Of a stretch of DNA of 64,000 bases, positions 3,120 through 59,433 are shown piece after piece. The stretch comes from Callorhinchus milii. Its lineage: Eukaryota. Location: positions 97,900,001-97,964,000 of the forward strand of contig NW_024704742.1 of NCBI RefSeq assembly GCF_018977255.1. Direction: 5' to 3'. Numbering within the stretch: position 1 is the first letter of the stretch; every line of letters begins with the position of its first letter. The notes under the pieces are model-generated. The model saw only the letters and a program-made list of their open reading frames with translations. It was not told where the DNA came from and did not search any database. Both the position numbers and the translations under genes were made by a program.

Positions 3120-3745
3120 CACCCCACTGTTCTCCCATCACAGAGTCAAGCTGTTTTTGATTGAGTCCAGTATCCTGGCTCAGCCATCCATCATTGTAAC
3201 CTTTTCCAGTTGTTAGTTACCCTCTTGGTAAATAAATACTTCCTGGTGTCTATCCTGAAATTGCCCTTTTGTAATTGTAAACCTGAGCCCTCTTCGTCTG
3301 TTGTCTTAGCACATCTACAAGTATTGGTCTGAGTTTAATAATAATAATAATCCTTGCATTTGATATAGCGCTTTTCACGTCGGGAGGACGTCCCAAAGTG
3401 CTTCACAGAACACACTGTAAAGTGAATTGACTGTATATTTGTGGGTGAACACGGCAGCCAATTGCGCACAGCAATGTCCCACAAACAGTCGTAGATTGAA
3501 GATGACCAATTTATTATTGTTTTTGGTTTTGGAGGGATTATTATTAGGGGTGTGGAGTAAGGAAACCTGCCCAAGATTTCGCCCTGCCTGGAATTGAACT
3601 CAGGTCTCTTGCTTGCAAAGCGAGTGCTCTAACCACTGAGCTACAGGTTTACTTTCCCATTTACAATTTTATATGCCTCTATAAGATCCCCTCTGAGAAT
3701 TCTCATTTCAAGACTGAGATTTTCTCAATCCATAGTTACTCATGC
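3120..3745 (-). mobile_element. Old CR1 ORF2 C-terminal relic, interrupted by a SINE
   Basis: Minus strand translates to KGNFRIDTRKYLFTKRV-like CR1 end; homologous to 30200-30740. Confidence 0.7.
3336..3647 (-). mobile_element. Young tRNA(Ala)-derived SINE, short subfamily with CTCCC tail loop
   Basis: A box TAGCTCAGTGG, B box GTTCAATTCC, Deu-like body, L2-type tail with (TTA)n; highly similar to 29854-30172 and 40765-41083. Confidence 0.92.
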
Positions 3746-4495
3746 AACGATTCTGTTGGGAACACTTGTTGGGTAGAAATAATACTTGGAATGTTGTACA
3801 TAAATCACTTCCCTTTCAATTCAGCTGTTATTTAAATATGCAATGCCTCCCTTGGTGTTCCTTGTTTTATTTGGCTTCTAAATCTGTTTTCCCTGCGGAG
3901 TAAACAGAAAAACAATATGATGCCTATTACATTCAGAAGTGCTGCACAGCGTCCTGGGTTAATTTCTGCCTCACCAATCAAAGCTTTTGTGACCCATGTC
4001 AAGGTGAGATCAGTTTCTCAGGAAATCTTCTGAAGCAAACAATGTGGGTGGCAGTAATAACTAGGCCATCTCGGTCACCTCCCACAGGAACCAGCAAGTC
4101 ACCTGAGAGAAAGGTCATCTGACCTCTCCCTCCATTTGCCGCCAACAGCCCTTTCATATCGTTATCTTCTACCAGCAAATGCAAATTCCCATGGCCAAAC
4201 CCTCCTGGGTTTCTCTGAACCAGGAGGCCATCTGCTAATACAATCATCCCACTTAAAGTGGCAGTGTTCCCCAGTCACTGAGGACTCTGCGAGACTGTTA
4301 CTTCTTACACGGTTGATGCACATGGTCTGAGTTTGAGAAACTACACACTTAGTGGCAAGTTAGGTTGTTCCTTCAGACTCTTTTATACAAATTTTTTTTT
4401 CTCAAACTACGATAGATCTGCTGCAGAAATGCACTTATTTCATAGCTTATTTATGTGAATTAGACCCACACCATAGTGCAGCCATTTGAGGTTAT

Positions 4496-4934: not shown

Positions 4935-5473
4935 TTAGTCATTCACTTCATGGCTGTTTGTGGGACATTGCTGTACACAAATTGGTTGCGGCATTCGCCT
5001 ACAAAATACAGTCACTATATTTTACAATAGGAGTCCTGTAGCTCATTGGTTAGAGCACTTGCCTCGCAAGCGAGACCTGGGTTTGATTCCCGGGTAGGGC
5101 AAAACATTGGGCAAGTTTCCTTACTCCACACACCTCTTTTTACCTAACAGTAAATAGGAACTCGGTTGTTAGTCGATTGGCGGATCGCTTTTCTGGGGGT
5201 AATAATTCCTTCAAAAAAATAGTAATAATAAATTTGTCATTCAATCCATGGCTATTTGTGGGGCACTGCTGTGCAAAATTGGCTGCCACATTTCATCCAC
5301 AAAATATAGTCGATTCACTTTACTGTATCTTCTGTGAAGCACTTTGAGATGTCTCAAAGACATGGTAAGGCACTGTACCAAATGCAAGGATTACTATTAT
5401 TAAATCCTGTGAAGCACTTTGAGCCATCCTCCCTGCATGAAAGTAGCTATGTCAAATGCAAGGATTATTATTA
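4935..5473 (+). mobile_element. Old Deu-SINE 3' half hosting a younger SINE; itself within an old minus-strand CR1 relic (~4695-5670)
   Basis: ggctgtttgtgggacattgctgt body stops at ~5029 and resumes at ~5403 with aaatcctgtgaagc...gcaaggattattat. Confidence 0.75.
5030..5402 (+). mobile_element. tRNA(Ala)-derived SINE, long subfamily
   Basis: ggagtcctgtagctc head, CGC anticodon loop, extra ~65-bp internal segment, Deu-like body and tail. Confidence 0.9.
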
Positions 5474-5964
5474 TGTTTAAATCTTCCTCAGACATGCTCT
5501 TTCCAGACTGAAAAGCCTTAGCTTGTGTAATCATTGCTCATAGCTCATTGCTTTAAAACTTTAACATACTGTATTTGCTACTTTCTTCTGCAATGCATCC
5601 AGAACCCAGGCAGTTCCTTTAAGTTGCAGAGTTTTGCATACCAGAACTGTATGTAATACTGCAGGCTTGGCCTGCTCTTATCCTGCAGCAAGTCACCTGT
5701 TGTTTTGCAAAAGAAAGAACTTGCATTTTTTACAGCAACTTACCACCACAAAACAGCACTTTAGTACTTTATAAGTAATTACTGTCAAATGTAATCACTG
5801 TTGTTGTAAGCAAATATGGGAGCCATTTTGATCACAGCACAGTCATTAAGGGAATGACTGATTCATCGGGATGATTGTTATCCAGGGAACAGAGAAACTC
5901 ACTTCTCTTTTAAAATAGTGTAATAGGATGTTTAAAATTGACCTGAATTGGTAGTTTACTGCCT

Positions 5965-11010: not shown

Positions 11011-11464
11011 CATCTCTCCCTGATGAAGTGAAGGGCATTAGGGCTCCATTGACAAACCCTTTCAAATGAATTGCTAAAGAAAAAAAAACTTGTCATGGAA
11101 TTTTTGAGAAAGGTTAATATTTTCTCCTTGTAAGTTGCAGTTTATGATTGTTTAATGGTACCCAATTGCTGGGCCCCCGTAGTACCTCAGCCAACAGCTA
11201 ATTTTTCATGTGTGATTCCAGACAGCAAATATCAGCAGGTTAATAAATAACAATTCTTGCATTTGATATACAATAGTACCTATCAGCTTGGGAGGATGTC
11301 TCAATCGCATTTCAGTCTCAATCACACTTTAGTTACTCAGTCATTCATAGAAATTCACTGGAAAGAAGTTTATTCAACCCATCACGTCAAAGGGATGGTT
11401 AACTCTAAGGATAAGTACTTATTTCCTCAGGGAGGGTTGCTTCGACCAATTTGTTGAACTCGCA

Positions 11465-11741: not shown

Positions 11742-12140
11742 GAATAATAATAATAATTGTTGCATTTGATATACAAAGTGAGAGACCTGGGTTTGATTCC
11801 CAGCAAGTCGAAACCTTGGGCAAGTTTCCTTACTCCACAGGCCTGATAATAATCCCTCAAGAAAAAAAACAATAATAAATTGAGCATTTCAATCCGCAAC
11901 TGTATGCGGGATACTGCTGTGCGCAATTGGCTGTTGTGTTTCGCCCACAAATATGCAGTCAATTTACTTTATAGTATATTGTGTGAAGCACTTTGAGACA
12001 TCTAGAAGAAATGAAAAGCACTATATCAAATGCAAGGATTGTTATAAATACAATATAGCACCTTATCTCGTCTTCAAGACATCTCAAAGCACTTCACAGA
12101 ATATACTGTAAAGTGAATTGACTATATTTTATGGGCGAAT
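11742..12140. mobile_element. Plus-strand short SINE (11774-12050) nested in a minus-strand SINE 3' fragment
   Basis: ATATA duplicated at 11769-11773 and 12053-12057; host sequence resumes exactly. Confidence 0.85.
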
Positions 12141-13208
12141 CAGATGGATTGAAATGGAAATGGCATCTGGTTGCAACCAAAGGCTGCTAAATTCCCTCCT
12201 TCCTGCTGTGTATGATCATGAAAGTCTTCAAAAATCAATGCATTCAATCATAGAAAAAGCAAAGTTCAGAAGCCACTGTAATTACTAACCTTATGTTTGA
12301 CATCCTATTTGACTGTACAAATAATCTGAAAGCTGATGGAGGAATTCCTTTAATGGGAGTAGTTGAAGTTAATGGAGCATCAGGTTCATGAGAAAGTGTC
12401 TGGCAAACTTCATCTCTCTTTTTCCAATCAGGCATTGCAATAATTATAATAATCCTCGCATTTGATATACCATCTTGTCACATCAAAACACCTCACAGAG
12501 TTTTTTCTGTAAAGTGCGGTGACTATTTATTTGTCGGGGAATGTGGTAGACAATTTGGAATGCCACACTGGAATGCCCTACAGCCATATATTTAAGAATT
12601 GTACACAATTTTGCTACTCATCAATTTTGAGATAGAATGGTCTTACAGGCTAAGACTAACTGAAAATTTAAGTCTCCTGGAGAGACTCAGTAGGGAAGGA
12701 AAAAGCAAGAAACAATGGTAGTCCACGCACCTAAACTAAGATTCTCAACACCTATGGAACACTTCAGGTCCTAAGTAAAATGGAACATCTATTGCATACT
12801 TTCACACTTGTGCAAGTGGCAGGAAACTGCTTGTGACTGGCCAGTAAAAGATAATCACAAACAGTACAATTTTTCATTTTTATCAATGGGTCATTCTGAA
12901 AATTGTCAAATACTGAGAAAGAGAACTTAGGATGTGAGTGCAAGCAAAGATGAACTCTTCGACCATTACCGCATCACTGTAACTGCACTTACTGAAGGAG
13001 ATTTCACTGAAACACCTTACTAACCTTCCCACTCCCTCCATTCGGCGGGCACTGGCCTGCTCCATGTCTTCGGTCCTTCTCATTCCACCATCGGCAGTCG
13101 AGCTTTCAGCCTTTCTGCCCCCACCATCTGGAATTCCTTCCCAGAATCCCATTGTTTTGCCCCTCCCTTGCCTCTTTCAAGGCCCTTCACAAGACTTTCC
13201 GCTTCGAA

Positions 13209-15690: not shown

Positions 15691-16519
15691 TCCTTACCTC
15701 AAGTATCGATCCAATTCCCCTTTGAAAACTACTATCAAATCTGCTTCCACCATCCTTTACAATAAATTATAATCTGTGTCTTTCCCTATCTGTAAGGGGG
15801 GATGTACTTAGGAGAAAGCTGTATCTGTTTGAGGTTATCAAAGACTATTTCTGGAGCCAAAGAGGATATTGCAGATACTATTTAGTTTTGTACAGTTGTT
15901 ATGGCAACATAGTGTAACATCCATCAGAAGGCTTCATCTCCTTGTTAGTCAGATGGTTGCACTGTATTTTACAATTTACTGCTTTGTACCCCTGTTTCTC
16001 ATCTTGCCAGGAATTTTGAAGTACAACATTATTTTAACTGAGACTGAGGATGTAGGTTGTAGGTCTTCTGTGATGGTAGCCATGTTTCCTTGTAAATGCT
16101 TTGTGTCAACAAACAAAAGGTGAATATTGTAATTGGGTGAATGAAGTGGTTTGAGTCAGTATCCCTAATTAGCCACTTTCACAAGTACGGATAAAAAAGG
16201 CCCTTTGGCTCATTTGATATCATCCTTCTTGAATGTCTACTCACTCTACTGCCTTCCCATTACAGCATCAAATTGCTTTTTTAAATAGATTCGTTATTCA
16301 GATTTCGGACATGATTCCTGGAAACCCATTCTCGCTGTTAAACCTTTCTGCTTAAAGATATATTAATTGGTTTCTGTCCCTGAATTGTCCTTCATAACTC
16401 TGAATCTGTGCCTTCTTGTCTTGTTGCCTTTGTGTATCTGAAAGTTTTGTTCTTGGTTTGCTTTCACTATCCTGTTCAGTATATTGTATTTCCATATAAC
16501 CTCTTCTTTGAGATGGCTC

Positions 16520-18608
16520 TGCAAACCCTGCCTGGTTCATCAGCCACCTCCGCTCACTTAAGGGTCAGGTGCGATCTGCCGAACGCACTTGGCTCAAATC
16601 CGGCCTAACAGTCCACCACCACATCTGGCTGGACCTCATCAAGAACTACCACTCCACTCTCGCTTCAGCCAAATCATCCTTCTATTCCAGATTAATCCTG
16701 GAGGTGAAAGGCAATCCCAGGCTCCTGTTCTCCACCACTGACCGGCTCCTCCCTGACATGCCTCGCAGATACTTTCCTCTGACTCTCACTGCGAGAAAAT
16801 GCTGGACTTCCTCGAGTCCAAAATCGAGGGAATCTGCTCAGCTGCAACTACGCTCCCAACTTCCACCCCCTCTCTACCCCCACCCCTCACAATTACCCAT
16901 CCGACAATTACCCATCCCTCCTTCCACACCTTTGAACCTGTCACCCCCCACTCTGTCTTCACCCCCATAAACTCCATGAAGCCCACCAGCTGCTCCCTGG
17001 ACTCAATTCCCATCCCTCTCCTTAAATCCTAGCTCCACCTCCTTGCCCCAGTACTCGCCAACATCATTAATCTCTCCCTGTCATCTGGCACTGTTCATTC
17101 TCCCCTCAAAACAGACACTATCATCCCCACCTTGAAGAAACCTTCCCTCACAGCTATCTCGCTACCGGCCCATCTCAAATCTCCCCTTCTTATCCAAGGT
17201 CCTTGAGAGAGCCATTGCCTCCCAGCTTTGCTCTTTCCTCTCCTCTCACTCCCTCCATGAACCCTTCCAATCGGATTTCCGTGCTGCCCACAGCATGGAC
17301 ACTGCTCTCGTCAAGGTCACAAACGACATCCTGACCATGTGCGACCAGGGCTCCCTCTGCCTCCTCGACCTCTCCGCCGCCTTTGACACCGTGGACCACT
17401 CAGTCCTCCTCCACCACCTCGACTCCCACCTCAATCTTCAAGGTTCTGCCCTTGACTGGTTCAGGTCCTACCTTTCACACCGCCTCCACTTCGTCATGAC
17501 AAACGGCTTCTCCTCCAGTCCTCACACCATCTTGTGCGGTGTTCCTCAGGGCTCTGCCCTCGGTCCCCTCCTCTTCACCCTCTACATGCTCCCTCTTGGT
17601 GACATTATCCGCAGAGATGGGATAAATTTCCACATATACGCGGATGACACCCAACTCTACCTCTCTGCCTCCACTCTGAACTCTAGGTCTACTGGTGTCC
17701 TGACCGACTGCCTGTCCGACATCAAGTCCTGGACGAGGGCCAACTTTCTCCAACTCAACGTCAGCAAGACCAAGGCCCTCCTGGTTGGCTCGCGCCAGCG
17801 CCTCTGTACCTCAGGCGCTGGCAGCATCAGCCTCCACGGCTGCACACTCAACCTCACTAAGCCAGTCAGGAACCTGGGTATCTTGTTTGACCCTGAACTG
17901 TCCTTTCTTCCCCACATCCGCGCCATGACTGGCACTGCCTACCACCACCTTCGCAACATTGTCAGACTCCACCATTGCCTCATCCCTCAGGCTGCCGAAA
18001 ACCTCACCCACGCATTCGTCACATCAAGGCTCGATTATGGAACTCCCTCCTCATCGGCCTTCCCAACTCTTCCCTTTACAAGCTGCAGGTCATCCAAAAC
18101 TCTGCAGTTCGTATACTCTCACGCACCAGGCTCCGTGACCCCATCACTCCCACCCTCGCCCGACTCCACTGGTTTCCCCATCCCCCAGAGGATCGAGTTT
18201 AAGATCATCATCCTCACCTTTAAAGCCATCCATGGCCTTGCCCCCTTCTACCTCTCTGACCTGCTGACTTCCCACCAACCTGCCTACTCCCTCCGTTAAT
18301 CGGGCTTCCTGCCTGCACCATGTCTCCTGCCCGACCTACCCTAGGCCGGGCTTTCAGCCTCTCTGCCCCCGCACTTTGGAACTCCATCCCAAGATCCCTT
18401 CACCTCGATTCCTCCCTTGCCTCCTTCAAGGTCGGTCTCAAGACCCTTCTCTTCGACCGTGCCTTTGGTCTCCCTCCCACCTCTCTACCTTCCCTCACCC
18501 CTACACCACCCCTCCCCATGCTCGGGCTCCAACACCTGATTGTTCAGCGCTTTGGGATGTCCTACCGACATGAAAGGCGCTCTATAAATGTAATTTTGTT
18601 GTTGTTGC
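16520..18608 (+). mobile_element. Longest L2-A LINE copy (~2.1 kb): post-endonuclease linker, RT and 3' tail; frameshifted
   Basis: 334-aa ORF 17295-18299 with LLDLSAAFDTVDH, GVPQGSALGPLLF and YADD. Upstream frames are broken and the endonuclease is missing. Confidence 0.93.
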
Positions 18609-18689
18609 CTGGGATGACAGCCAACTCCCTACATCTGGACTCTCACTCGCTTTGCCTTCCCTCACCTCCATAATATCACCCAGGACTAC

Positions 18690-20922: not shown

Positions 20923-21660
20923 CCAACAACAACGACAACTTGCATTTATGTAGCACCCTTCATGTAAGATAACATCCTGGAGTGATTCACAGTGATGAGG
21001 TTTCACCACAACAACAACAGCTTCTATATAGCGCCCCTCACGCAGAGCTGGGTCTCAGAGTGCTTGACAGTGGTGGAGCATGGCACTGAGACAGGTGGAG
21101 GTGACCGTAGGCACGGTCGAAGAGGAAGGTCTTCCGAGCAATGAGAAAGGAGGAGTAGGAGGTGATGGTAGACATGGTCGAAAAGGCAGGGCGAAATGTT
21201 GAGCAAACCTCCTTTGTCCACACACCTCTGTTTACCTAGCAATAAGTAGTAATCCGGTTTTTAGTCAATTGGCGGATTGCCTTTCCAGGGGCTATTGCCT
21301 TTCTTAAAGGGTTAATAATTGCCTTTCTTAAAGGGTTAATAATCCCTTTTTAAAAAAATTGGTCACTCAATCCAAGACTGTTTGTGGGACATTGCAATTG
21401 GCTGCCATGTTTCACCCACAAAATATACAGTCAATTCACTTTACTGTATATTCTGTGAAGCGCTTTGAGTTGTCTCGAAGACATGATAAAGCACTATATC
21501 AAATGCAAGGATTATTATTATATTATTAAAATGGGATTTAAAGACAGATAAAGAGGGGACATGGCAGAGGGGTAGAAGCAGGGAATTCCAGAGCGTAGTG
21601 TGTAGAGACTGAAAGCTCAGCTCCCAATGATTGTGGAGAGGCTAGGGGTTGAATTCGGAG
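20923..21660. mobile_element. Nest of two minus-strand L2 3' ends plus a plus-strand long SINE (~21185-21527)
   Basis: Two (CAA)n tails; the SINE carries a 24-bp tandem duplication at ~21296-21343. Confidence 0.75.
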
Positions 21661-21777
21661 AGTGGATTTCCTACTGAAAACGGAGTTGAAAATGAAACTG
21701 TCTCAAAGCACTGTACTGTCAAATGTCTTTGAGTTGGTACATTTTCTGGCGGTGAAGCACCCAGTAACACTACTGCT

Positions 21778-21962
21778 TTCCCTTCAACCGTGCCTTCGGC
21801 TCCCCTCTCGACTCTCTACCCCCTCCTCGCTCCCTCGCTTCCCTCCCCTCACCCTGACCATTTCCCCCCTGCTCGGGTCCCGACTCAACTGTCCAGTGCC
21901 TTGGGACGTCCTCCCGACGTGAAAGGCGCTCTATAAATGAAATCTTGTTGTTGTTGTTGTTG
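21778..21962 (+). mobile_element. Young L2-A 3' UTR/tail
   Basis: gggacgtcctcccgacgtgaaaggcgct followed by (TTG)n; sister of 50124-50885. Confidence 0.88.
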
Positions 21963-21964
21963 CT

Positions 21965-22568
21965 TTCGAGGCCTGACTATGCAAACTCCCTACTTGTTGT
22001 CGTCCCCAACTCCTCCCTCTGTAGGCTGCAGATCATCCAGAACTCTGCATGCCATGTCTTCTCCTGCACCAGGCTCCGTGACCCGATCACCCTCATCCTC
22101 GCCTAACTCCACTGGCTTCCCATCACTCAAAGGATACAGTTCAAGATCCTGGTCCTCACCTTAAAAGCCCTTCATGGCCTTGCTCAGCCCTACCTCTGTG
22201 ACATCCTAACCCCTTACCATCCTGCCCGCTCCCTCCATTCAGCGAGCTCTGACCTGCTTCACGTCCCCCTCCTTGCCTGCCTCACAATTGGCGAGCGGGT
22301 GGGTCTTCTGCCACTCTACCTCTACCTTCTGGAACTCCATCCCACAGGCCCTCTGCCTTGGCTCCTCCCTTGCCTCCTTCAAGACCCATCTCAAGACCCT
22401 AACTCTTCGACCGTGCTTTCGAACTTCCTGCTTTCCCCCCTGCCCTCCACCCTCCCCGATCCTGACTCCCAGCTCGGGTCCGAAACATTGACTGTTCAGT
22501 GCCTTGGGACATCCACCTGACTTGAAAGGTGCTAAACAAATGTAATTTTGTTGTGGTTGTGGTTGTTG
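21965..22568 (+). mobile_element. L2-A 3' fragment
   Basis: aggatacagttcaagatcctggtcctcacc; tail ttgtggttgtggttgttg. Confidence 0.88.
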
Positions 22569-23724: not shown

Positions 23725-24040
23725 AGGGATACTTTCTGTCTGCTTAGATGGATGTTGAAGATCCCATGGCAAAAGTAGAAGGGAGTTTTTCCTGCTTTAC
23801 GAGCCAACAAATCCCCAAATAAAATTGGTCATTTACTTCATGGCTGTTTGTGGGACATTGCTATGTGCATATTGCCTGCTACATTTGCCTACAAAATACA
23901 CAGTCACTACGCTTCACACTACATTCACCGACAAAATAGACACTCACTGCAAATACACATTATAGTGTATCCTGAGAAATGTTTTGAGATGCCCTTCTAA
24001 CATGTAAGGCGCTATATAAAATGTAAGGATTATTATTATT
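23725..24040 (+). mobile_element. Deu-SINE, headless
   Basis: gatgttgaagatcccatggca...ggctgtttgtgggacattgct...aaggattattatt. Confidence 0.78.
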
Positions 24041-24099
24041 TTTCTTTAGAAAAAGACCAGTATCATCACTTAAGACTACAGTATATACAAAGATTGCCA

Positions 24100-29853: not shown

Positions 29854-30172
29854 ATAATGAAAAATAATAATCCTTGCATTTGATATAGCGCTTTTCAGAT
29901 CGGGAGGACGTCCCAAAGCGCTTCACAGAACACACTGCAAAGTGAATTGACTGTATATTTGTGGGCGAACGCGGCAGCCAATTGCGCACAGCAATGTCCC
30001 ACAAATAGTCGTAGATTGAAAATGACCAATTTATTATTGTTTTTGGTTTTGGAGGGATTATTATTAGGCGTGTGGAGTAAGGAAACTTGCCCAAGGTTTC
30101 GCCCTGCCTGGAATTGAACTCGGGTCTCTCGCTTCCAAAGCGAGTGCTCTAACCACTGAGCTACAGGACTCC
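29854..30172 (-). mobile_element. Young full-length tRNA(Ala)-derived SINE, CTCCC loop
   Basis: Complete GGAGTCCTGTAGCTCAG head; CpGs retained. Confidence 0.93.
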
Positions 30173-31920: not shown

Positions 31921-32142
31921 GAAGGGCTTCAAGCCTAGCTCATTTACTTGAACCAGGAACCCTGCAATCCTATCCTTTCTTCCAACAGAAGTTCTCTCTC
32001 AAAGACAGAGAATTATTTTATTGAAATCGGGTATCAACATATCCATTCAACACCAATGCTGTGTGGTTTTGTCAGGAAATGGCCTCACAAGAATCTTCAC
32101 TTTGAGAAAGTGCAATCAGTTTCTGAACTTCATTCAATACGT

Positions 32143-32537
32143 GGAGTCCTGTATCTCAGTAGTTAGACCACTCGCCTCGCAAGCGAGAGGAGCTGGATTT
32201 GATTCCCAGGGAGGGCAAAATGTTGGGCAAGTTTCATTACTCCACACGCCTCTGTTTACCTTGCAGTAAGTAGGAACCCGGTTGTTAGTTGATTGGCAGA
32301 TCGCTTTTCCGGGAGTAATAATCTCTTCACAAAAAAAAAATAGTTTGGTTACTCAATCCACGACTGTTTGTGGGACACTGCTGTCAGTTGGATCTTCTGC
32401 TGTGCGCAATTGGCTGTTGTGTTTCACCCACAAAATATAGAGTCAATTCACTTTACAGTATATTTTGTGAAGCGCTTACAGACATCTCAAAGATGTGATA
32501 AGGTGCTATATCAAATGCAAGGATTATTATTATTATT
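32143..32537 (+). mobile_element. tRNA(Ala)-derived SINE, long subfamily
   Basis: Homologous to 5030-5402 over its full length. Confidence 0.9.
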
Positions 32538-32669
32538 TTATTACATTGTATGATCATGGAGAGCTCATCTTAGTTAAGTTCAATGTGAGCCTTGAACTGA
32601 ATGTTGAATACACAGATGAGAAGTGGGGAACAATTTGGTCGAATCTTCCTAAAATTTCTGCCAGTCATG

Positions 32670-36209: not shown

Positions 36210-37510
36210 TCATAGAATCATAGAATTATACAGCGCAGAAGGAGGCCATTCAGCCCATCGTGTCTGTGGCGGCTCTTTGAAAAGAGCTATCCAAATCAAT
36301 CCCACTCCCCCGCTGTCTCCCCATAGCCCTGCAAACTTGTCCTCCCCAAATAATTATCTCCTTCTCTCTTAAAAGTTGTTATCGAATCGGCTTCCAACAC
36401 CCTTTCAGGCAATGCATTCCAGATCTGAACAACTCGCTGTGTAAAAAAAATTCTCCTCACCTCTCCTCTGTTTCTTTTAACAATCATTTTAAATCGGTGT
36501 CCTCTGGTTACCGACCCACCCACCAGTGGAAATTATTTCTCCTTGTTCACCCTATCCAATCCCCTCATAATTTTGAAAACTTCTGTTAAGTCTCCTCTTA
36601 ACCTTCTCTGCTCCAAGGAGAATAATCCTAGCTTCCCTAGCCTCCCCTGATAACTGAAGTCCCTCATTGCTGGTACCATCCTCGTAAATCTCCTTTGCAC
36701 CCTCTCTAATGCCTTGATATCCTTCCTAAAGTGTGTTGCCCAGAACTGAACACAGTGTTTTATAAAGGTTCATCATAACTTCCTGACTTTTGTATTCTAT
36801 GCCCCTATTTATAAAGCCTAGTATTCCGTATGCCTTTTTAACAGCTTTATCTACCTGTTGTGCCACCTTCAAAGATTTACTTATATGAACCCCCCGGTCT
36901 CTCTGTTCCTTCACCCCCTTTACGATTGTACCATCAGCTTATATTGCCTCTCCTCATTCTTCCTCCCAAAATGCAGCACTTCGCATTTCTCTACATTAAA
37001 CTTCATCTGCCACGTGTCTGCCCATTTTACAAGTCTGTCTATGTCCTCTTGCAGTTTACTACTATCCTCCTCACTGTTTGCTACTTTTCCTAGCTTAGCA
37101 TCATCCGTAAACTTGGAAACTGTACTCCCTATACCCAAGTCCAGGTCATTTATATAGATCAAAAATAGCAGTGGTCCCAATAATGACTCCTGGGGATCAC
37201 CACTTCCCTGCAGTCAGAAAATCACTCTCTGCTTTCTGTCTCCCAGCCAGTTCTGTATCTATGCTGCCACTATCCCTTTAATACCGTGAGCTTCTATTTT
37301 GCTTAAAAGTCTCTTATCAGGTTTATTAGACATGATCTGCCTTTAACAAATCCATGTTGGCTGTCCTTTATTAACCCACATTTTTTAAAGTGAAAATTTA
37401 TTTTGTCCCTGATTATAATCTCTAGAAGCTTCCCACTGGCATTAGGCTGACTGGCCTGTAGTTCCCAGGTTTATCCTTCTGCCCCTTTTTGTACAGGGGA
37501 ATAACATTTC
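36210..37510 (-). mobile_element. CR1 LINE, 5'-truncated (RT to 3' tail)
   Basis: GPLLFLIYINDL...KFTDDAKL...WQMKFNVEKC; tail catagaatcatagaa. Confidence 0.93.
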
Positions 37511-37534
37511 TATTTTATTCTATTTTTTATTTCT

Positions 37535-38350
37535 AGTCTATTCTGTGAAGCACTTTGAGACATCTAGAAGACGTGAAAAGCGCTATATCAAATGCAAGGA
37601 TTATTATTATTATTAACGTTGTGGGTTGCCTTCCTGGCAACCTTTTCCCTCTAATTACCTTCTGAGTAAAGCAAAACATCCTGGTATCTAATAATGATAA
37701 TAATCCTTGCATTTGATATAACATCTTATCATATCATCAAGACGTCTAATGTGCTTCACAAGATATACTGTAAAGTGAATTGACTGTATTCTGTGGGCGA
37801 ATGCGGCAGCCAATTTGCTCACAGCAATGTTCCACAAATACCCATGGAGTGAATGACAACATTTATTTGGGGAATTGTTGGCCAGTACACCTGGCGAAAC
37901 TCCATCTCTTTCCAAATAGTGCCATGGGATCTTTAATGAAGTTCAGACCTGAAATTGCCCTTTGCGAGTCTAAACCTTGTGCCCACTTTTTCAACTGTCT
38001 TGGTGCATCCTAACATATTGATCTGGGTTAATGTTTTCAATCCCATTTTAAAATTTTATACGCCTGTATGAGACCCCCTCTGTGTCATCTTCTTTCAAGA
38101 CTGAAGAGCCCAGCTTTCCAAATGTTGCTCAAAGATGATTCCTCAAACATTGCGGATCATCCTTGTTGCTCTCCTGTGCACTGACTGCAGGCTCTGGACA
38201 GCCCCTTTTTGTCGCAGTGACCAGACTGTATGCAGTACTTTATATACAATCTAACCAGAACAATATTTAGCTTGAGAATGATGTCTGGGCATCTAAACTC
38301 AACTGATTTAGCATTATAGCACAGCATCCTGTGTGGCTTATTTATTGGCA
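37535..38350. mobile_element. SINE tail (+, 37535-37615) and Deu-SINE (-, 37690-37935) within an old minus-strand CR1
   Basis: CR1 sequence cctggtatct breaks at ~37690 and resumes at agacctgaaattgccc (~37945). Confidence 0.72.
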
Positions 38351-39164
38351 GTCCTTTCTACTATGCACATAGCTTTATGAAACTGCCACCCAAACATTAA
38401 TGTTGCAAAGATCACTGTGGATTAAAAAAATGTTGTCACTCCTTTGCTGATTCCTTATGGGAACATCTGGGGCTGTTTTGCGGCTGTAGTAATTGGTATA
38501 CTCCCCCGCATCCTCCCAGTGAGATGGGAAACAGTCTTTAAGCTACTAACCCTAAACTGTTTTGTGACTCACTACTCATATGCACAAACAGCATCGTAAA
38601 ATAGAACATTACAGTACAGAAAAATGCCATTTGGCCCATCAAATCTGCATCTGATCTAATCCCACTCTCTTGCTTGCTCCCTTTAATATTGACATCTATC
38701 TAATTCCTTTAGGAAATAATTGATGGGCTCCGCTTCAGCAACAGTTTGTGACAGTGAATTGCATATTCAGACCACGCTCAGTGAAAGCCAACTTTCCAAG
38801 TAACACTTTAATTCTTTGTCATTCTTTTAAATTTGTGATTTGTCATTACTGACTGATCAACCAGTAGCAATAATCTACAGTAGAACACCACATATTTGGA
38901 AACTGACCTACTGTGCTCCAACACATCCTCAACGGGCTCCACTGTGGAAATATGATATAGACCCCAACATTTTCAGTTGTGTGCAAGCACGCACTCCCAC
39001 TCCCTCGAGTCGCTGCCACATTTACCAAGAAAATACACTTTACAGAATATTTTTGAGACAAATCCTACATCAAATGCAAGAATCACTATTACTTTTGTTA
39101 CTGAGTTTGTATGACTTCAACACAGCAAAAGCAGCATGAGGCCACCCCAGGAAGACAACCTACT

Positions 39165-42100
39165 GAATCACAGAATTATACAGCGCAGAAGGAGGCCATT
39201 CGGCCCATTGTGTCTGTGCCGGCTCTTTGAAAAGAGCATCCAAATCAATCCCACAACCGCGCTCTCCCCACAACCCTGCAAACTTGTCCTCCCTAAATAA
39301 TTATCTACTTCTCTCTTAAAAGTTGTTATCGAATCGGCTTCCACCACCCTTTCAGGCAATGCATTCCAGATCCGAATAATTCGCTGCGTGAAAAAAATTC
39401 TCCTCACCTCCCCTCTGTTTCTTTTAGCAACTATTCTATATCAGTGTCCTCGGATTACTGACCCACCTGCCAGTGGAAATAGTTTCTCCTTGTTTACCCT
39501 CATAATTTTGAAAACTTCTATTAAGTCTCCTCTTAATCTTCTCTGCTCCAAGGAGAATAATCCTAGCTTCTCCTGATAACTGAAGTCCTTCATTCCTGGT
39601 ACCATCCTGGTAAATCTCCTTTGCACCCTCTCCAATGCCTTGACATCCTTCCTAAAGTGTGGTGCCCAGAACTGAACACAGTTCTAGCTGAGGCCTAACC
39701 AGTGTTTTGTAAAAGTTCATCATAACTTCTTGACTTTTGTATTCTATGCCCCTATTTATAAAGTCTAGTATCCCATATGCTTTTTTAACAGCTTTATCTA
39801 CCTGTCCTGCCACCTTCAAAGATTTACTTATATGAACCCCCCGGTCTCTCTGTTCCTTCACCCCCTTTAAGATTGTACCATCAGTTTATATTACCTCTCC
39901 TCATCCTTCCTCCTAAAATGCATCACTTTGCATTTCTCTACATTAAACTTCATCTGCCACGTGTCTGCCCATTTTACCAGTCTGTCTATGTCGTCTTGAA
40001 GTTTACTACTATCCTCCTCACTGTTTACTACTTTTCCTAGCTTAGCATAATCTGTAAACTTGGAAACTGTACTTCCTATCCCCAGCCCAGGTCATTTATA
40101 TAGATCAAAATCAGCAGTGGTCCAAATACGGACTCCTGGGGGACAGCACTGAACACTTCCCTGCAGTCAGAAAACCACTCTGCTTTCTGTCTCCCAACCA
40201 GTTCTGTATCCATGCTGCCATTGTTCCTTTAATACCGTGGGCTTTTATTTTGCTTAAAAGACTCTTATGTGGCACTTTATCAAACGCCTTTTGAAAATCC
40301 ATATAAACTACATCAGCTACACTACCTTCACCATCTCCATTACTTCATCAAAAAACTCTTATCAATTTTGATAGGCAGGATTTGCCTTTAACAAACCCAT
40401 GTTGGCTGTACATTATTAACCCATATTTTTGTAGGTGAAAATTTATTTTGTCCAGGATTATAGTCTCTAGAAGTTTCCCCACTACTGACATTAGGCTGAC
40501 TGTCCTGTCGTTCCTGGGTTTATCCTTCTGCCCCTTTTAGTACAGAGGAGCAACATTTGAAACCTTCCAATCCTCTGGCTCCACCCCGGTGTCCAAGGAG
40601 ATTTAAAGATTGTGGCCCGAGCCTCCATTATTTCCACCCTTACTTCCCTCAGTAACCTAGGATGAATCTCATCTGGACCGGGTGACTTATCTACCTTAAG
40701 CACCGACAACCTTTTTAGTACCTCCCCTCGGTTTATTCTTATCTTATCCAATTTCTCTACCTGCTAATAATAATAATAATAATCCTTGCATTTGATATAG
40801 CGCTTTCCACATCGGGAGGACGTCCCAAAGCGCTTCACAGAACACACTGTAAAGTGAATTGACTGTATATTTGTGGGCGAACGCGGCACCCAATTGCGCA
40901 CAGCAATGTCCCACAAACAGTCATAGATTGAAAATGACCAATTTATTATTGTTTTTAGTTTTGGAGGGATTATTATTAGGCGTGTGGAGTAAGGAAACTT
41001 GCCCAAGGTTTCGCCCTGCCTGGAATTGAACTCAGGTCTCTCGCTTGCAAAGCGAGTGCTCTAACCACTGAGCTGCAGGACTCTCCTCCAATACTGTGGC
41101 ATTGGCTGCATCCTCTTCTTTTGTGAAGACAGATGCAAAGTACTCATTCAGTACATCAGCCGTGCCCTCTGCCTCCATAAGAATATTTCCTCTTTGGTCC
41201 CTAATTTGAACCACCCTACTTTTGACTAACCTTTTATTCTTTATATGCTTGTAAAATATCCTAGGTTTTCCTTTTCTGTTACCTGCTAATCTTTTCTCAT
41301 ACAATCTCTTTGCCCCTCCTATTTTCTTTTTCAGTTCTTTCTATATTCTATTTGATTATCTTCTGTATTATGGATATGATATTTTTCATAAGCCTGCTTT
41401 TTCTGTTTAATTTAATCTCAATTTCATCCAGGGAGGTTTAGATGCCCTACCTTTCCCCTTTGTGGGAATGTATTTGTTCTGTCCCCAAACTATCTTCTCC
41501 TTGAAGGCTTCCCATTGATTGTTAGCTGTTTTACCTGCCAATCTTTCTTTCCAGTCCACCTTGTCCAGGTCCCTTTTTAAATCACTAAAATTAGCCGTCT
41601 TCCAATTTAGTATCTTCACTTTTGATTGTTCCTTATCCCTTTCCATAAGTACTCTAAGCCTAATGATGTTGTGATCACTGTTGTCCAGATGCTTTCCTAC
41701 TGAAACCTGCTCCATTTTCCCCCCTTCATTCCCCAGAACTAGATCCAGCACTGCTTCCTTCCTCATTGGGCTGGAAACATACTGATCAAGAAAGTTATTC
41801 TGCACACATTTCAAGGAATCGTTCCCCCTCCTTGCCCTTTACACTGTTATTATGCCAGTCTACATTAGGATAATTGACGTCCTCCATTATCACTATTCTA
41901 TTGGTTTTGCATCTTTCTAAAATCGTCTTGCAGATTTGTTCGTTTATCTCCTTCCCTATTTTATGGTCTATAGTGTACACCTAACATAGTAACAGCTCAT
42001 TTTCTGCTCCTTAACTCTAACCAAATGGATTCTGTTTTTGGACCGTCTAGCACATTGTCCCTTTCCAGGGCCGTAACCATGTCTTTAATCAATACTACCA

Positions 42101-44329: not shown

Positions 44330-45630
44330 ACATAACTTATTTTCGCCCTACTCACAGCACAGAGATAGAGCTTGTCAAAGACACAAACAACATTCTCTCT
44401 ATCTGTGACCATGGTTCCCTCGGCCTCCTCGTCCTCCTGGATCTCTCTGACGAGTTCACACAGTCGATCACGCTATCCTCCTCCATCTGCTCTCCTCCCT
44501 CATCTACCTTAGTGGGATTGCACTCGCACAGTTCGAGTCCTACTTAACCAACTGCCTCCATTTCATCTCAGCAAATGGTTTCTACTCCCAACCCCACCCA
44601 GTCACCTGCGGGGTACCCCAGAGCTCCATCCTTGGCCCTCTTCTTTTTCTTATCTATATGCTCTCTCTGGGTGATGTCATCCATAGACATGGGGTAAACT
44701 TCCACATGTATGTGGATGACACACAAATCTATTTTGCCTCCTCCAGTACCAACTCCAGTACCAACGATGTTCTATCAGCTTGTCTGGCAGACATCATGGC
44801 CTGGATGAGTGTAAACTTCCTGTAGCTGAATATGGACAAGATGGAAGCCATACTCCTAGTCTCCCATCAACGTCTTCACTCCTACGGATCTAAACTCCTC
44901 AACCTCCTTGGGCTCTCCCTCACACTCACTGAACCAGTGTGCAATCTAGGTGTCCAGTTCGAACCCCAGCTGTCCTTCCTCCCCCATATGCAGTCCCTGA
45001 CCAGGACCACTTTCTTCCACCTCCACCAGTTTGCCCGCCTCTGACCATAACTTACCCCAAATGCAGCCGAAACCCTCGTGCATGCGGTTGTCACCTCCCA
45101 CTTGGATTACTCCAACGCACTCCTCGCAGGTCTCCCCAGCTCCACCGTTCAAAAGATCCAGCTCATTCAGAACTCTGCCACCCACCTACTGCCCCGGACC
45201 AAACTCCGTACCCACATCTCACCAGCTCTGGCCAGGCTCCACTGGCTCCCCATCACCCAACAGAGCGACATTCAAGATCTTCACACTCGTGTTAAAATCC
45301 CTTCACTCTCTGGCACCTCCCTACCTCTCTGAACTCCTCACTCCCCAATCCACCACCTGGTGCCTCTGCTCGACTGGCACCGGCCTCGTACCTCGCACCC
45401 TCCGCCCCACCATCAGAGATCGCACTTTCAGCCAGTATGCCCCGAAACTCTGGAACACTCTCCCTCAATCCCTCCGCCTTGCCCCCTCTCTCCCCTTTGT
45501 CAAGTCCCACCTGAAAACCGTCCTCTTAGACCGTGCTATGGCCACCTCCCCACCCCCGGCTCGGAGTCAGGCTCTGCTACTGTTAAGTACTTTGAGACGC
45601 TACCCTACAAGGAGAGCGCTATATAAGTGT
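44330..45630 (+). mobile_element. L2-B LINE RT plus 3' end
   Basis: [32 protein letters not shown]; tail gagacgctacc...gagcgctatataag. Confidence 0.9.
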
Positions 45631-45631
45631 A

Positions 45632-45870
45632 AGTATAACAACAACTTGCAGTTATATAGTGCTCTTCACATGGGGTAGCGTCACAGAGCGTTTCACAGTG
45701 GCAGAGTCTGACACTGAGTCAAGGAGAGAGGGAGGTTGGAGGTGACCATATGCATGATAAAAAATGAAGGTGCTGAGGTGGAATTTGAAAGTGGGGAAGG
45801 AGGGGCCAAGGCGGCGGGGTTGAGAGAGAGAATTCCAGAGTTTTAGGGCGTAGTGGCTGTAAGCACAATT
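45632..45870 (-). mobile_element. L2-B 3' fragment, tail-to-tail with the previous element
   Basis: acaacaacttgcagttatatagtgctcttcac. Confidence 0.8.
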
Positions 45871-48699: not shown

Positions 48700-49205
48700 T
48701 GCACCCAAGCTGGAGGGAGAGAGCTGAAGAGGGTGGGGGGAGGGAAAGATGACCGAGAAAAAAGATCAAAGAGATAAGTCTAAGGCGGGCTTTGAAAGTA
48801 CGGAGGGAGAGGGGGCAAGTCAAAGGGACTCGGATGGAGATCCAGAGAGGAGGGACAGAATAATTGAGAACTTGCCCACCAATGGTGGTTCAAATAGGGA
48901 GGGGATATGAAGCATTTCACTCAAAGAAGGGTGTGGCTTGGTTGGCATGGTTGGAGAGGCTCCCAGAAGTAGGATGGGGCGAGGCTGTGGAGGGACTTAA
49001 ATGTGAGGATGAGAATCTTAAACTTGATCTGCTGGGGATAAGGAGCCAGTGAAGCTGAGCAATGATGGGGTGATAGACTAATAATAATTTTTGCATTTGA
49101 TATAGCGCCTTTTACATTGGAAGGATGACTCAAAGCACTTTGCATGATTTAAGGGTGTGTTTTGTAGGCAAATGTGACAGGCAATTCGCACAGCAATGTC
49201 CCATC
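48700..49205 (-). mobile_element. L2 fragment followed by a SINE tail
   Basis: QQIKFKILILTFKSLHSLAPSY; ttgcatttgatatagcgcc. Confidence 0.75.
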
Positions 49206-50123
49206 AGCATTCACGTAAGCTGTTGGATTTGCCAAATTCAAAAAAATTTGTGAATCCCAAAAGCAAGATAAGTCCAAAAAAAGGGTTTTGCAGTTTTCCG
49301 GGATTTGCAGTTTCGCAAATCTAACCAGCAATTAAAAACCGCAGTCCACTTTTGTGTAATTTCTATTTGATAGTTTGGGAATCTCTAAATGTAAGTCTAA
49401 ATGTATATATATATTGGGACTTGCACGCTATTCTTTATTTAAAGAAATAGATTCAATATAGATTCTCAACCTCAGGCCACACTGCACAGTTGGACATATA
49501 CGAAAACTCATTAAAAATTAAATGTCCATTTAACGTATTATGCTGTCTGTCCTAACCCAAATTATTATTGACATGAGCCAAAGTTAAATGCAGTGGATTT
49601 GGCTCTGTTAATGCCTTTACTGGACAACACTGAGAAGTATAACATGGGTTCAATAGTTTGCAAGAAGATTATGTAATGTTGTGGATCCGATGATGGAACA
49701 GGAGGAAGAGCATGTGACAAATGCAGGAAAAGATTTCAACAGTGCAGTTACAGTAATGAATCTGGGTGTCTGTTAACAGCATGGGTGTGAATGCAAAGCA
49801 GGAAGGATGCTCTGATATACCATAAGTGTAAAAAATCAGCTACAAGTCGATGTGATAGACTGGAGATGGAATGAGGCCAGCTGTCTGTCTGTTAGATGCA
49901 TGGGGGTGTTTATATACCGGAATGGGTAATGAAGTAGAGCAATGATAAGCCAATTGTGGCAGAATAGATGTAGAAAGGAAAAGCTTCTCTGATCAAACAG
50001 GCACATGCAATTTGGAGCTTGATGTAGGGCTAATAATTTACAAAACAAAACACTTGTTTTAGAGTCATACAAAATGGTGATCATTTAAGGAATACTGGAA
50101 GTTTTACGACAATACAATTGTAG

Positions 50124-50885
50124 CAACAACAACAACAACAACAAGATTCCATTTATAAAGCGCCTTTCACGTCAGGAGGACGTCGCAAGGCGCTGCACAG
50201 TTGGGTCATGACCCGAGCAGGGGGGAAATGGTCAGGGTGAGGGGAGGGAAGGGAGGGAGCGAGGAGGGGGGAAATGGTCAGGGTGAGGGGAGGGAAGGGA
50301 GGGAGCGAGGAGGGGGGAAATAGTCAGGGTGAGGGGAGGGAAGGGAGGGAGCGAGGAGGGGGAAGAGAGTCGAGAGGGGAGCTGAAGGCTCGGTCAAAGA
50401 GAAAGGTCTTGAGACCGGCCTTGAAGGAGGAAAGGGAGGAGGCGGCGAAGGCACTGGGGGATAGAGTTCCAGAGCCTAGGGGCTGAGAGGCTGAAAGCCC
50501 GACCACCGATGGTAGGGCGATTGGGGCGGGGGACGTGGAGCAGACCGGAGCCAGAGGAACGGAGGGTACGGGCAGGTAGGTAGGGGGATAGTAGGTTGGA
50601 GAGGTAGGAGGGAGCAAGGCCGTGAATGGCCTTGTAGGTGAGGATGAGGATCTTGAAATCAATCCTCTGGGGGATGGGGAGCCAGTGGAGGCGAGCGAGG
50701 GTGGGAGTGATGTGGTCCCGAAGCCTGGTGCGGGACAGTACACGAGCTGCAGAGTTCTGAATGACCTGCAGCTTGTGGAGGGAGGTGGCGGGAAGGCCGG
50801 CGAGGAGAGAGTTCCCATAGTCCAGCCTTGAGGTGACAAAGGCGTGAACCAGGTTTTCAGCAGCGTGAGGGGTGAGGTAATGAGC
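50124..50885 (-). mobile_element. Young, CpG-rich L2-A 3' fragment
   Basis: Intact ORF2 C-terminus, (CAA)n tail, many CpGs retained. Confidence 0.93.
50219..50364. repeat. 46-bp G-rich tandem repeat x3 inside the L2 3' UTR
   Basis: Unit aggggggaaatggtcagggtgaggggagggaagggagggagcgagg at 50219, 50265 and 50311. Confidence 0.95.
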
Positions 50886-50889
50886 ATTT

Positions 50890-51360
50890 CAATAATAATA
50901 AATTACACTTATATAGCACCTTACACATTGAGAGTACATTTCAAAACTCAGTGAGAGATCAAGTTGGGAGCACAATCAAAGTGGTAGATCTTCAGGCAGG
51001 ATTTGAAAGAAAAGAGGGAAGGAGCGAGCTGAAGGGATTTCAGCATAGCGTCCAGAGGGAGGGAGCAAGGTAGCTAAATATTTATCCACCATTATTGAAG
51101 CAGAGAGGACAGGGGCAAGAAGCAGCTCTGGGTTGATGGAGCAGAGGAAGTGACTGGTGCAAGAAGATGGAAGCAGCTGAAGATGAGGACGAGGATCCTA
51201 AAGTTGACAATGATAATGTTTGTATTTGATATAGCACCTATCGGGACGATATTTCAAAGCGTTTCACAGATTTAACTGCAAAGTGTAGTGAATGTGTATT
51301 TCGTAGTTGACCATGGCAGCCAGTTTGCCATTAGCAAGGTCCCACAAACAGGCACGAAAT
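50890..51360 (-). mobile_element. Older L2 3' fragment followed by a Deu-SINE tail
   Basis: aaattacacttatatagcacc and tttgtatttgatatagcacc tails. Confidence 0.65.
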
Positions 51361-52529
51361 TAAATACAAAATTGATATACTGCGGTATAGGGAGGCAGCA
51401 GACCAGAAGGTGATGCTGAGAAAGCCACGAGCGGGAAATTGGAGAAATTTACTTTTATATTCCAGACCTGTTTATTCTAAAGCCCAGCATCCTTTTTGCT
51501 TTACTGATTGCTTTTTGCAAAGGATTTGCCCAGTGTCCAGTTCAAAAATTCTCTGGATTATTTGGTCATTTACCTCATAGCTGATGCTGGTCCTTGCTGC
51601 ACGGTCCTCTCTATTAGGGATTTGGCTGACGGTATATAGGTTCTATCTACACTTTCAAGACTGCCTTGGATTGTTATAAATTTCACTAACAAGTTTGAGT
51701 GAATGGTCTTGCAAACTAACAATGCAAAAAATTGACTGCCATATTTAGCCCACCAAAATACAGTCAATCCACTTTACAGTATATTCTGTGAAGCGCTTTG
51801 AGACATCTCAACAACATGACAAGGTGCAATATCAATACCCTGGCTTGTCAGCTTGCCTATAACCAGAAAACAATGACAGCCAGCACCATTAGGGTCAGTG
51901 GGAGACACTGTCCAACTTTTGGCTTCAGAAGCAGTGGGGAATATGTGCCTTTAGACATGGCAATAGGTGCCTCTGGATGAACTATCAGCATCTTCTCTAG
52001 ATTACAATACTGCCAACAAGGGCAGGACTGCACAGCACAGCAAACTATAGAGGCAGCATCTGGAAAAAGACAAGTTCAAAGTAATTTTAATGTGCATCAA
52101 CTCATTTCCTGTACATGTACGACTGTCTGATTTTAGGCAGGAGAAGGAACACATGGCTTGCCAGAGCATCTGAATTATTAAGCAAGCTGCACAGCAGGGG
52201 TTTGGAACTGTTGTGATATCCAACCGTTCATTGAAACGAAAACCTATTGATGCTGCAGCTCAATGTTAAAAGACTGGTGCATAAGTTAAGACACAGAACA
52301 GAAGGTAATCAGTAAACAGCTCAGTGGGTTTGAGGTTGGGGCCCACACATCATCAGTTGACAACAGAGGGACAGGAACCCTTGTTGAGTTCTACCACAAA
52401 GAAGGGGACTCCCCCATCAGGAACTGTTTGAAATATCAAAGTATCCGCAATGAACTATTAAGCATCCACATGAAACACCTTACCAAGACTGATTTTTTCA
52501 CTTCCAGTACATTGTCCATCTCACACCCA

Positions 52530-54417: not shown

Positions 54418-54764
54418 TTATTTCACTCATGGTATCATATAATGTTACAGAAATCCAGACATGGAGTTGCAATTCATTAACAGTTAGCATTTTCAAAAAC
54501 CGGTGATTTATGTGAAACAGTCTCAATAATTTCATTACGCTCATTGCAAGTTTTGCTCTGACATGTTAATGTGGTCGATTTTGGAGTATTAATAGATTTC
54601 TAAATAAACATAGATTCTACAAACAGATTTGCTTATTTCAAAGCCTCTAGGATGATGGGATGTATAATGTAAATGCATCTCATGCCGGGACTTTGAAACT
54701 TTGCTACAACATGACTAGATCATTATATGTTGTTATCTGCCTTTTTTAAATACTACTACCAATA

Positions 54765-55070
54765 ATAACCCTAACATTTGGTATAGCATCTTTCAAGCCA
54801 GGAGAATGCTTCAAAGAACTTCACATGATATACTGTAAAGTGGAGGGACTGTGCATTTTCTGGGAGAACATGGAAGCCAATCTTGCGCACAGCAATATCC
54901 CACAAACAGCCATGAAGTGAATGACTAATTTTTATTGGGGATTGTTGGCCAGGACAATGGGAGAAACTCTCTTCTCATTTTGATTAACGTCACTGGAACT
55001 TTAATGTCCAGCTGATCAGAGAGATCTCAGACTAATGTTTAATGCAAGAGACAGCACCCCTGACATCATC
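54765..55070 (-). mobile_element. Deu-SINE relic
   Basis: gcgcacagcaatatcccacaaacagccatg...ttggccaggaca. Confidence 0.75.
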
Positions 55071-59119: not shown

Positions 59120-59433
59120 TGGAGTCTAGCTCAGTGATTGGAACACTCGCCTCGCAAGCGAGAAACCTGGGTTCAATTCCATGCAGGGCAAAACCTTGGG
59201 CAAGTTTCCTTACTCCACATGCCAGATAATAATCCCTCAAGAAAAAACAACAACAATAATTTGGTCACTCAATCCACAACTATTTGTGGGACACTGCTGT
59301 GCACAATTGGCTGCTGTGTTTTGCCCACAAATATACGATTAATTCACCTTACAGTATATTCTGTGAAGCGCTTTGAGACTTCTAGAAGATGTGAAAAACA
59401 CTGCATCAAATGCAAGGATTATTATTATTATAT
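59120..59433 (+). mobile_element. tRNA(Ala)-derived SINE, early short subfamily
   Basis: CGC anticodon, internal deletion present, TAGAA loop. Confidence 0.9.

Follow-up and report, generated by a model that had tools for sequence, protein, structure and literature searches.

Block replacement of the 3' hairpin loop in a young tRNA-Ala SINE clade of Callorhinchus milii, with an L2 element as candidate donor

The CTCCC loop at the tip of the 3' hairpin in a young SINE clade arose by replacement of five adjacent bases as one block, in a single step. The clade was found in a window of 64,000 nucleotides from Callorhinchus milii (the whole stretch of DNA that was analysed), and the loop swap is a real, non-chance feature of a known SINE family. 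A short conversion or template switch, proposed in an earlier note on this DNA, is the simplest origin of the block. We consider it somewhat probable that a patch of 5–30 bases including the whole loop was captured in one homology-guided event from the hairpin of an L2 element, L2-A. One copy of the clade, 3336, has the following layout.

3336 to 3647, minus strand: young short-form tRNA-Ala SINE of the CTCCC subfamily
3580 to 3649, minus strand: tRNA-Ala-like head (ARAGORN, tRNA-Ala TGC; Rfam RF00005 at 3583-3647)
3367 to 3402, minus strand: 3' two-stem hairpin with an 8-bp lower stem, a 3x2 internal loop and a 5-bp upper stem
3382 to 3386, minus strand: terminal loop CTCCC, the swapped block and minimum of the putative captured tract
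3373 to 3402, minus strand: maximum of the putative captured tract, ending short of the SINE-type positions 3372 and 3403-3404
3336 to 3351, minus strand: terminal (ATT)n repeat of SINE type

Between head and hairpin lie a short A-rich linker and then a 3' part of ~160–185 bases; the segment that follows the head resembles what we take to be a CORE domain. The terminal repeat of L2-A is (TTG)n, unlike the (ATT)n of the SINE. ARAGORN and Rfam call SINE heads tRNA genes (3580-3649, 30099-30170, 41012-41081, 57836-57907 and 60064-60135), which makes these heads a trap for tRNA annotation. ARAGORN reported tRNA-Ala at 3580, 41012, 57836 and 60064 and tRNA-Pro at 30099, the head of copy 29854 being read as tRNA-Pro owing to one anticodon change, and RF00005 matched six SINE heads.

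When 13 tails were folded singly, the two-stem hairpin was obtained for 3336, 40765, 57596 and the L2 tails 21901, 58095, 63925 and 50137, and a weaker version of it for 37531 and 21185. Copy 29854 adopted a different upper stem, and other folds were obtained for two L2-B tails and for copy 59120, which is decayed. The two-stem fold described in the earlier note thus stands for the former set and not for 29854 or 59120. In an RNAalifold consensus of 17 tails, an internal loop separates stems of 8 bp and 5 bp, and the terminal loop has 5 bases. In this alignment one lower-stem pair varies on both sides (U-A in 8 sequences, C-G in 6, U-G in 3), and the overall covariation term is ~0.

The following related copies were compared with 3336.

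29859 to 30170, minus strand: second CTCCC-subfamily copy (29854), loop 29902-29906, 3' arm of the upper stem mutated
40765 to 41083, minus strand: third CTCCC-subfamily copy, loop 40814-40818
57596 to 57910, minus strand: sister copy with the L2-type GGG ahead of the stem and loop TAGAA (57639-57643), within an L2-A copy
59118 to 59443, plus strand: older short-form SINE with loop TAGAA and a GAG stem context
11775 to 12053, plus strand: older short-form copy, GAG, loop TAGAA
5029 to 5402, plus strand: long-form copy, loop TCAAA (TCGAA after CpG decay)
32140 to 32541, plus strand: long-form copy, loop TCAAA
21185 to 21536, plus strand: long-form copy, 5'-truncated, loop TCGAA

The loops listed in the earlier note are correct: TCAAA in 5030 and 32143, TCGAA in 21185, TAGAA in 11774, 59120 and 57596, and CTCCC in 3336, 29854 and 40765 as well as in the L2 tails 21901, 58095 and 63925. 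Two long-form SINEs also have private local changes, a 24-base tandem in 21185 (21294-21354) and a 19-base insert in 32143.

In a tree of 25 SINE rows, from which nine named copies with fewer than 100 aligned bases were excluded and in which old copies were poorly resolved, the trio 3336, 29854 and 40765 formed a clade (UFBoot 99) with 57596 as its sister (UFBoot 72). The loop columns had been left out of this tree. Outside the loop, four changes relative to 57596 and the older short copies are common to the trio (3493, 3474, 3413 and 3411). Inside the loop all five adjacent bases differ, CTCCC in the trio and TAGAA in 57596. The probability that five of nine shared changes in ~306 bases form an adjacent run is about 1.8e-6, and the chance that five changes hit one given 5-mer is 1/243. 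All trio-only sites are confined to the 3' 112 bases. Within the 64-kb window, three CTCCC copies and one GGG-TAGAA copy were read whole.

The L2-A elements that bear on the loop are as follows.

57350 to 58150, plus strand: L2-A copy interrupted by SINE 57596 (body 57350-57588, resuming at 57921), CTCCC loop 58105-58109
21776 to 21959, plus strand: L2-A 3' end, CTCCC loop 21911-21915
63894 to 64000, minus strand: L2-A 3' end, CTCCC loop 63938-63942, the best match to the SINE hairpin
16401 to 18609, plus strand: longest L2-A, with a tail-binding-region motif near 16530, an RVT_1 frame (17136-18296) and loop CTACC; frames broken

Copy 3336 shares an exact tract of 24 bases with L2 21901 and 58095, and one of 26 bases (3373-3398) with L2 63925. 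For 57596 the exact tract with five tested L2 tails is only 9–13 bases, and no exact tract spanning the loop was found between 3336 and the four old SINE tails tested. The claim that the five bases had changed together, to the loop of L2-A, is thus borne out by both the run of changes and the tracts of 24–26 bases. The flanks, which the earlier note had described as SINE-type, are so in the trio at 3372 and 3403-3404; however, the G at 3393 is L2-type, and it is already present in 57596, which also shares a 1-base deletion near 3449 with the trio. Given these SINE-type flanks, the captured patch would measure 5–30 bases, and because these flanks are followed by an (ATT)n end, it would be internal. 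Like L2-A, the trio retains GGG and mostly intact stem CpGs.

The captured loop is the long-standing loop of L2-A and not a recent L2 novelty. Three of 22 non-SINE rows had no loop letters; of the 19 L2 tails scored, 12 were within one base of CTCCC when CpG decay was forgiven, and none in the window had a TCGAN or TAGAA loop, even one base off. At non-CpG sites the L2-A subgroups are 13–16% apart and the nearest pairs 6–8%. The two halves of the L2 with tail 58095, which flank SINE 57596, lie end to end when aligned with copy 22492. Since the TAGAA SINE 57596 is nested within it, this CTCCC-bearing L2 predates a TAGAA insertion. An intact L2 ORF2 was not found within the 64-kb window. The earlier proposal that the donor was the youngest, currently active L2 therefore finds no support, in view of the spread of CTCCC-like loops over 12 of 19 tails and over subgroups 13–16% apart, the relative age of 58095 and 57596, and the lack of an intact ORF2 in the window.

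The L2-A frame at 17136-18296 matched the reverse transcriptase domain PF00078 (E 1.2e-29); no Pfam match was obtained for three of four frames in one search or for any of four in another. The frame at 16512 contains W-x15-E-x2-W (W, E and W at +0, +16 and +19), which is the residue spacing of the conserved tail-binding region in ZfL2-2, with Pro at -2, not at -1. The C-terminal frame of copy 50137 was compared with protein entries: among the best 120 of 2326 matches, C. milii entries were 94% (over 74% of the query), 79% and 72% identical, other relatives, from bony fish and others, were 50–65% identical, and one entry without an organism was 80% identical. A near-identical full-length ORF2 was absent among these 120, which is weak evidence on L2 activity. 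The C. milii entry annotated in UniRef as tetratricopeptide repeat protein 39B, part of which matches the L2-A C-terminus at 94% identity, is probably a gene model with an engulfed L2 fragment.

Other repeats were also seen in the window. L2-B tails (2028, 9074, 20347, 20925, 21008, 28517, 42942, 45579, 45630 and 57315) share the stem plan and have TACCC- or GTCCA-like loops, for which no matching SINE was found in the window. One L2-A copy has, in its 3' UTR, 3.2 repeats of a 46-base unit (50214-50362, 98% match). Fragments of a second LINE type, presumably CR1-like, lie at 36950-41840, and their reverse transcriptase is 26–27% identical to that of L2-A. L2 and SINE copies often abut each other's microsatellite tails (20925-21163, 21776-22559, 45579-45866, 49073-48701 and 50133-51378), a pattern that points to (TTG)n or (ATT)n tails as insertion sites; in L2-A the 3' hairpin is followed by a short tandem repeat. 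Tail-only SINE pieces abut other SINE ends at 5401-5479 (after 5030, same strand) and 12053-12141 (after 11774, opposite strand). An open frame in non-repeat DNA (58224-58439, minus strand) ends at a splice-donor-like site and had no Pfam match; it is possible that it is an exon.

CTCCC-like loops are also present in older SINE tails.

54753 to 54953, minus strand: old-family SINE with a distinct upstream body, loop CTCCT
5401 to 5479, plus strand: old SINE-type tail, loop CTCCC, GAG context
11243 to 11304, minus strand: old SINE-type tail, loop CTCCC, GAG context
49073 to 49217, minus strand: old SINE 3' part, loop CTTCC
51200 to 51378, minus strand: old SINE 3' part, loop GTCCC
23920 to 24045, plus strand: old SINE 3' part, loop CTTCT, partly L2-like end

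These six tails (5401, 11243, 54753, 23920, 49073 and 51200) are at most one base from CTCCC and have a GAG or GAA context and decayed arms; a further tail, 59822, is two bases away and doubtful. Because six older tails carry such loops, CTCCC is not unique to the youngest SINE subfamily. Thirty-six SINE-type rows were considered, six of them gapped at the loop, and among the 30 scored the loops were bimodal: 19 were of TNGAN type, 10 of CTCCC type and one was ambiguous. Chance decay was rejected as the source of the old CTCCC-like loops, as simulated TCGAN gets there in at most 0.5% of loops. Nine old copies have a common upstream body, which may be the Deu domain of SacSINE1-CM and which is absent from 5030, 32143 and 3336; their alignment with the tRNA-headed SINEs is restricted to the 3' part. 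Both loops occur in this group, the CTCCC type in 54753 and the TNGAN type in 37680, 14717, 23049, 34362 and 56202. The CTCCC of earlier SINE tails reflects either an earlier capture or the ancestral state, and the capture of an L2-A loop by the young clade would probably not have been the first of its kind. The stretch past the stem in 23920-24045 is L2-like, yet its end is a SINE-type (ATT)n; it is possibly a SINE/L2 chimera.

The CTCCC copies postdate the GAG-TAGAA copies, whereas no measurable age difference separates them from the GGG-TAGAA copy 57596. Non-CpG divergence is 2.2–2.9% between pairs of the trio and 12.6% between 59120 and 11774. Private non-CpG changes number 3, 3 and 4 in the trio and 4 in 57596 (of 264 sites), and of 14 CpGs the trio keeps 8, 13 and 11 and 57596 keeps 8. 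The trio had been described as the three least-diverged copies and CTCCC as younger than TAGAA; both statements hold against 59120 and 11774, the GAG-TAGAA copies, and fail against 57596, with which the trio is tied. With 57596 and the trio equally young, a succession from TAGAA to CTCCC lacks support at its last step.

Public sequencing runs were used to look beyond the window. Of the sequence words of 3330-4480, 0.88–0.91 were present in four runs of organism A and 0.22–0.24 in organisms B and C. Contigs of four of the 24 listed runs were aligned on 3325-3660, namely X1 and X5 (organism A), X6 (organism B) and X8 (organism C). The depth at 3382 relative to 3370, a contig depth and not a copy number, was 0.75 in X1, 0.80 in X5, 0.21 in X6 and 0.21 in X8; TAGAA contigs are clipped at 3381, and L2 tails align on the same bases. 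Letters other than the older one at 3411, 3474 and 3493, whose shares are a maximum for trio-type letters, made up 36, 44 and 42% in X1, 7, 14 and 11% in X6, and 7, 13 and 10% in X8. The ratio of the linker bin (3505-3516) to the tail bin (3349-3360) was 0.28 in X1 and ~0.01 in X6 and X8. These ratios were calculated by hand from tables in which 130 variant rows are hidden and some differences are not counted. The data suggest that the CTCCC subfamily spread mainly within the lineage of organism A. Loose ends of TAGAA type were found at 3381 in all four runs. Pattern scans for further copies gave 0 and 1 match in metagenome contigs, 0 and 0 in viral contigs and 0 and 0 in prokaryote genomes; the one metagenome match, to a SINE body motif (L001:501-520), is probably due to chance.

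Under the preferred reading, capture from L2-A, the starting point would have been a source copy of the short GGG-TAGAA subfamily. Its identity to a 63925-type L2 before the event would have extended over up to 16 bases upstream of the loop and 9 downstream. Reverse transcriptase may then have switched at the hairpin from SINE RNA to L2 RNA and back again, or the patch may have been carried by a short DNA conversion; template switch and DNA conversion are indistinguishable from these sequences. The event would complete a successive approach to the L2-A hairpin, through loss of the additional T found in the long form, then a change of GAG to GGG and finally replacement of the loop, an order that rests on few copies. 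By analogy with zebrafish L2s, it is about an even chance that the CTCCC loop would have improved binding by the L2-A ORF2 protein and so helped the subfamily to spread.

L2-A as the donor is, in our estimate, slightly better than an even call. The loop might have come instead from an older CTCCC SINE lineage (SacSINE1-CM-like) by conversion or template switch, with the L2 match being second-hand. The six old tails within one base of CTCCC, which decay seldom produces in simulation, would provide such donors, and T at 3474 is common to the trio and the old family. Long SINE-SINE homology favours conversion, and an old CTCCC SINE is an equally good donor if the tract comprised no more than the five loop bases. 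SINE-SINE conversion that altered subfamily diagnostics is documented for Alu (PMC8230782), and CmiSINEs are thought, in the text of PMC5499810, to have acquired their entire 3' end from SacSINE1-CM. However, with GAG or GAA at 3393 and decayed arms in the old tails, the exchanged tract would have to be hardly larger than the loop, and the remaining three trio diagnostics differ from the old-family states. L2-A is favoured over an old SINE because it has intact arms and GGG, and a SINE donor therefore appears doubtful. We regard as improbable that CTCCC is ancestral and was retained, 57596 being a young copy converted back to TAGAA. The confinement of the trio-only sites to the 3' end, the old CTCCC-like tails and the support of just 72 for the sister position of 57596 would be consistent with this, but in the 3' segment 57596 shares G 3393 and the deletion near 3449 with the trio, and TNGAA loops occur in all other short copies and in three of four long copies. 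Convergence on the L2-A loop by stepwise point mutation, under selection for binding, is very improbable. Single-base moves toward the L2 hairpin (the T loss and GAG to GGG) did precede the swap, and TCGAA to TAGAA is one step; against this, the same branch has just four other shared changes, and the short subfamilies in the window (three CTCCC and five TAGAA copies) have no part-way loop. Intermediates carrying A as the second loop base would give A>T at 3385, and A>T at 2% or more was missing from X1 and X5, so such loops look uncommon; the sole loop variant among the 40 rows shown was 3382 G>A, a CpG decay. The expectation of the earlier note that stepwise intermediates are not common is in line with these results. 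Hairpin micro-inversion was rejected on inspection, as inverted TAGAA is TTCTA and not CTCCC, and so was quasi-palindrome copying from an upstream GGGA, which would leave one of the five bases unaccounted for and for which no arm was in place beforehand.

With either donor the swap may have been neutral, the holocephalan L2 tolerating several loops and the patch hitchhiking with a successful source gene; this is possible, although we lean against it. It is possible that the loop has little weight here, because TAGAA and TCGAA SINEs spread while no matching L2 exists among the 19 scored tails. Copies with these loops are the majority (19 of 30), their loose ends appear in every run aligned, and the insertions of 57596 and the trio are of about equal age. 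Neutrality is opposed by the strict loop recognition of ZfL2-1/2 and UnaL2 (PMC4176376 and PMC1636434), and by loops that are bimodal rather than drifting, with CTCCC kept by L2-A across its diverged subgroups. Three CTCCC copies against one GGG-TAGAA copy also speak against it, in numbers too small for a test. A broader scheme, which we consider unlikely, is that the SINE loop toggled repeatedly between TNGAN and CTCCC through holocephalan history by micro template switches in the L2 particle, by which the SINE would have changed from one L2 partner lineage to another or returned to L2-A, each switch being followed by amplification.

By description, the family of 3336 fits the CmiSINEs of C. 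milii (SINE2-1_CM and SINE2-1B_CM) on every tested feature. According to the text of PMC5499810 (Luchetti et al. 2017), two tRNA-Ala CORE SINEs of C. milii and the older SacSINE1-CM have ~160 bases in common at their 3' ends, the SINE tail is 78.6% like L2-2_CM and the family has some 300,000 copies. In PMC3747384 the partner of SINE2-1_CM is given as CR1-2_CM, names differing between the sources. The likeness to this system extends to the tRNA-Ala head, the L2-like tail, the younger and older waves, and a ~160-base 3' part common to an older family with another body. In contrast, the text of PMC5499810 assigns all three SINEs one tail and has no loop, stem, hairpin or CTCCC subfamily, which its figures and supplements or Repbase may show.

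Loop-specific recognition is proven for eel and zebrafish L2s only. Recognition of the loop by L2 ORF2 protein is established for ZfL2-1 and ZfL2-2: PMC4176376 reports that each protein needs its own loop and accepts the other's stem, that loop swaps abolish retrotransposition, and that ZfL2-2 has a conserved tail-binding region with the spacing W325, E341, W344. For UnaL2, PMC1636434 describes loop and hinge as required, and the protein is thought to let go of the loop during reverse transcription. The elements described here resemble UnaL2, UnaSINE1-2 and ZfL2 in the two-stem hairpin, the internal loop, the 5-base loop, the terminal microsatellite and the ORF2 tail-binding motif. However, the UnaL2 loop is GGAUA, and the eel and zebrafish swaps were engineered, whereas the present one is natural.

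Mosaicism among cichlid AFC SINEs was reportedly described by Takahashi and Okada in 2002. Alu conversion is reported among SINE subfamilies, including into master copies (PMC8230782). These cases have in common with ours a short exchange of diagnostic sites that is able to reach the source gene; they differ in being SINE-to-SINE, whereas here a LINE is the best donor and the patch lies at the presumed specificity site. Whole-tail switching of SINEs to the prevalent LINE is a standing model (MetaSINEs, PMC4824008; PMC5499810). In such module exchange, too, template switching is proposed to keep the SINE matched to its LINE, but it involves the whole 3' end and one junction, and here it would involve 5–30 internal bases and two junctions. 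No precedent for an internal loop-only patch from a partner LINE was found in titles and abstract openings, a coverage that lies outside most subscription journals.

The CTCCC and TAGAA copies are natural alleles that differ in the loop within an otherwise near-identical young SINE clade. They are ready-made reporters for testing whether SINE success depends on the loop alone, and they allow a genome-wide count on whether stringent SINEs patch themselves from their LINE. They also raise the question of which L2 mobilised the TAGAA and TCGAA copies. If the loop is neutral, the swap would be ordinary mosaicism in a known SINE. If the loop did toggle repeatedly, this would amount to partner switching at five-base resolution, by which stringent SINEs may track their LINEs while the whole tail is kept.
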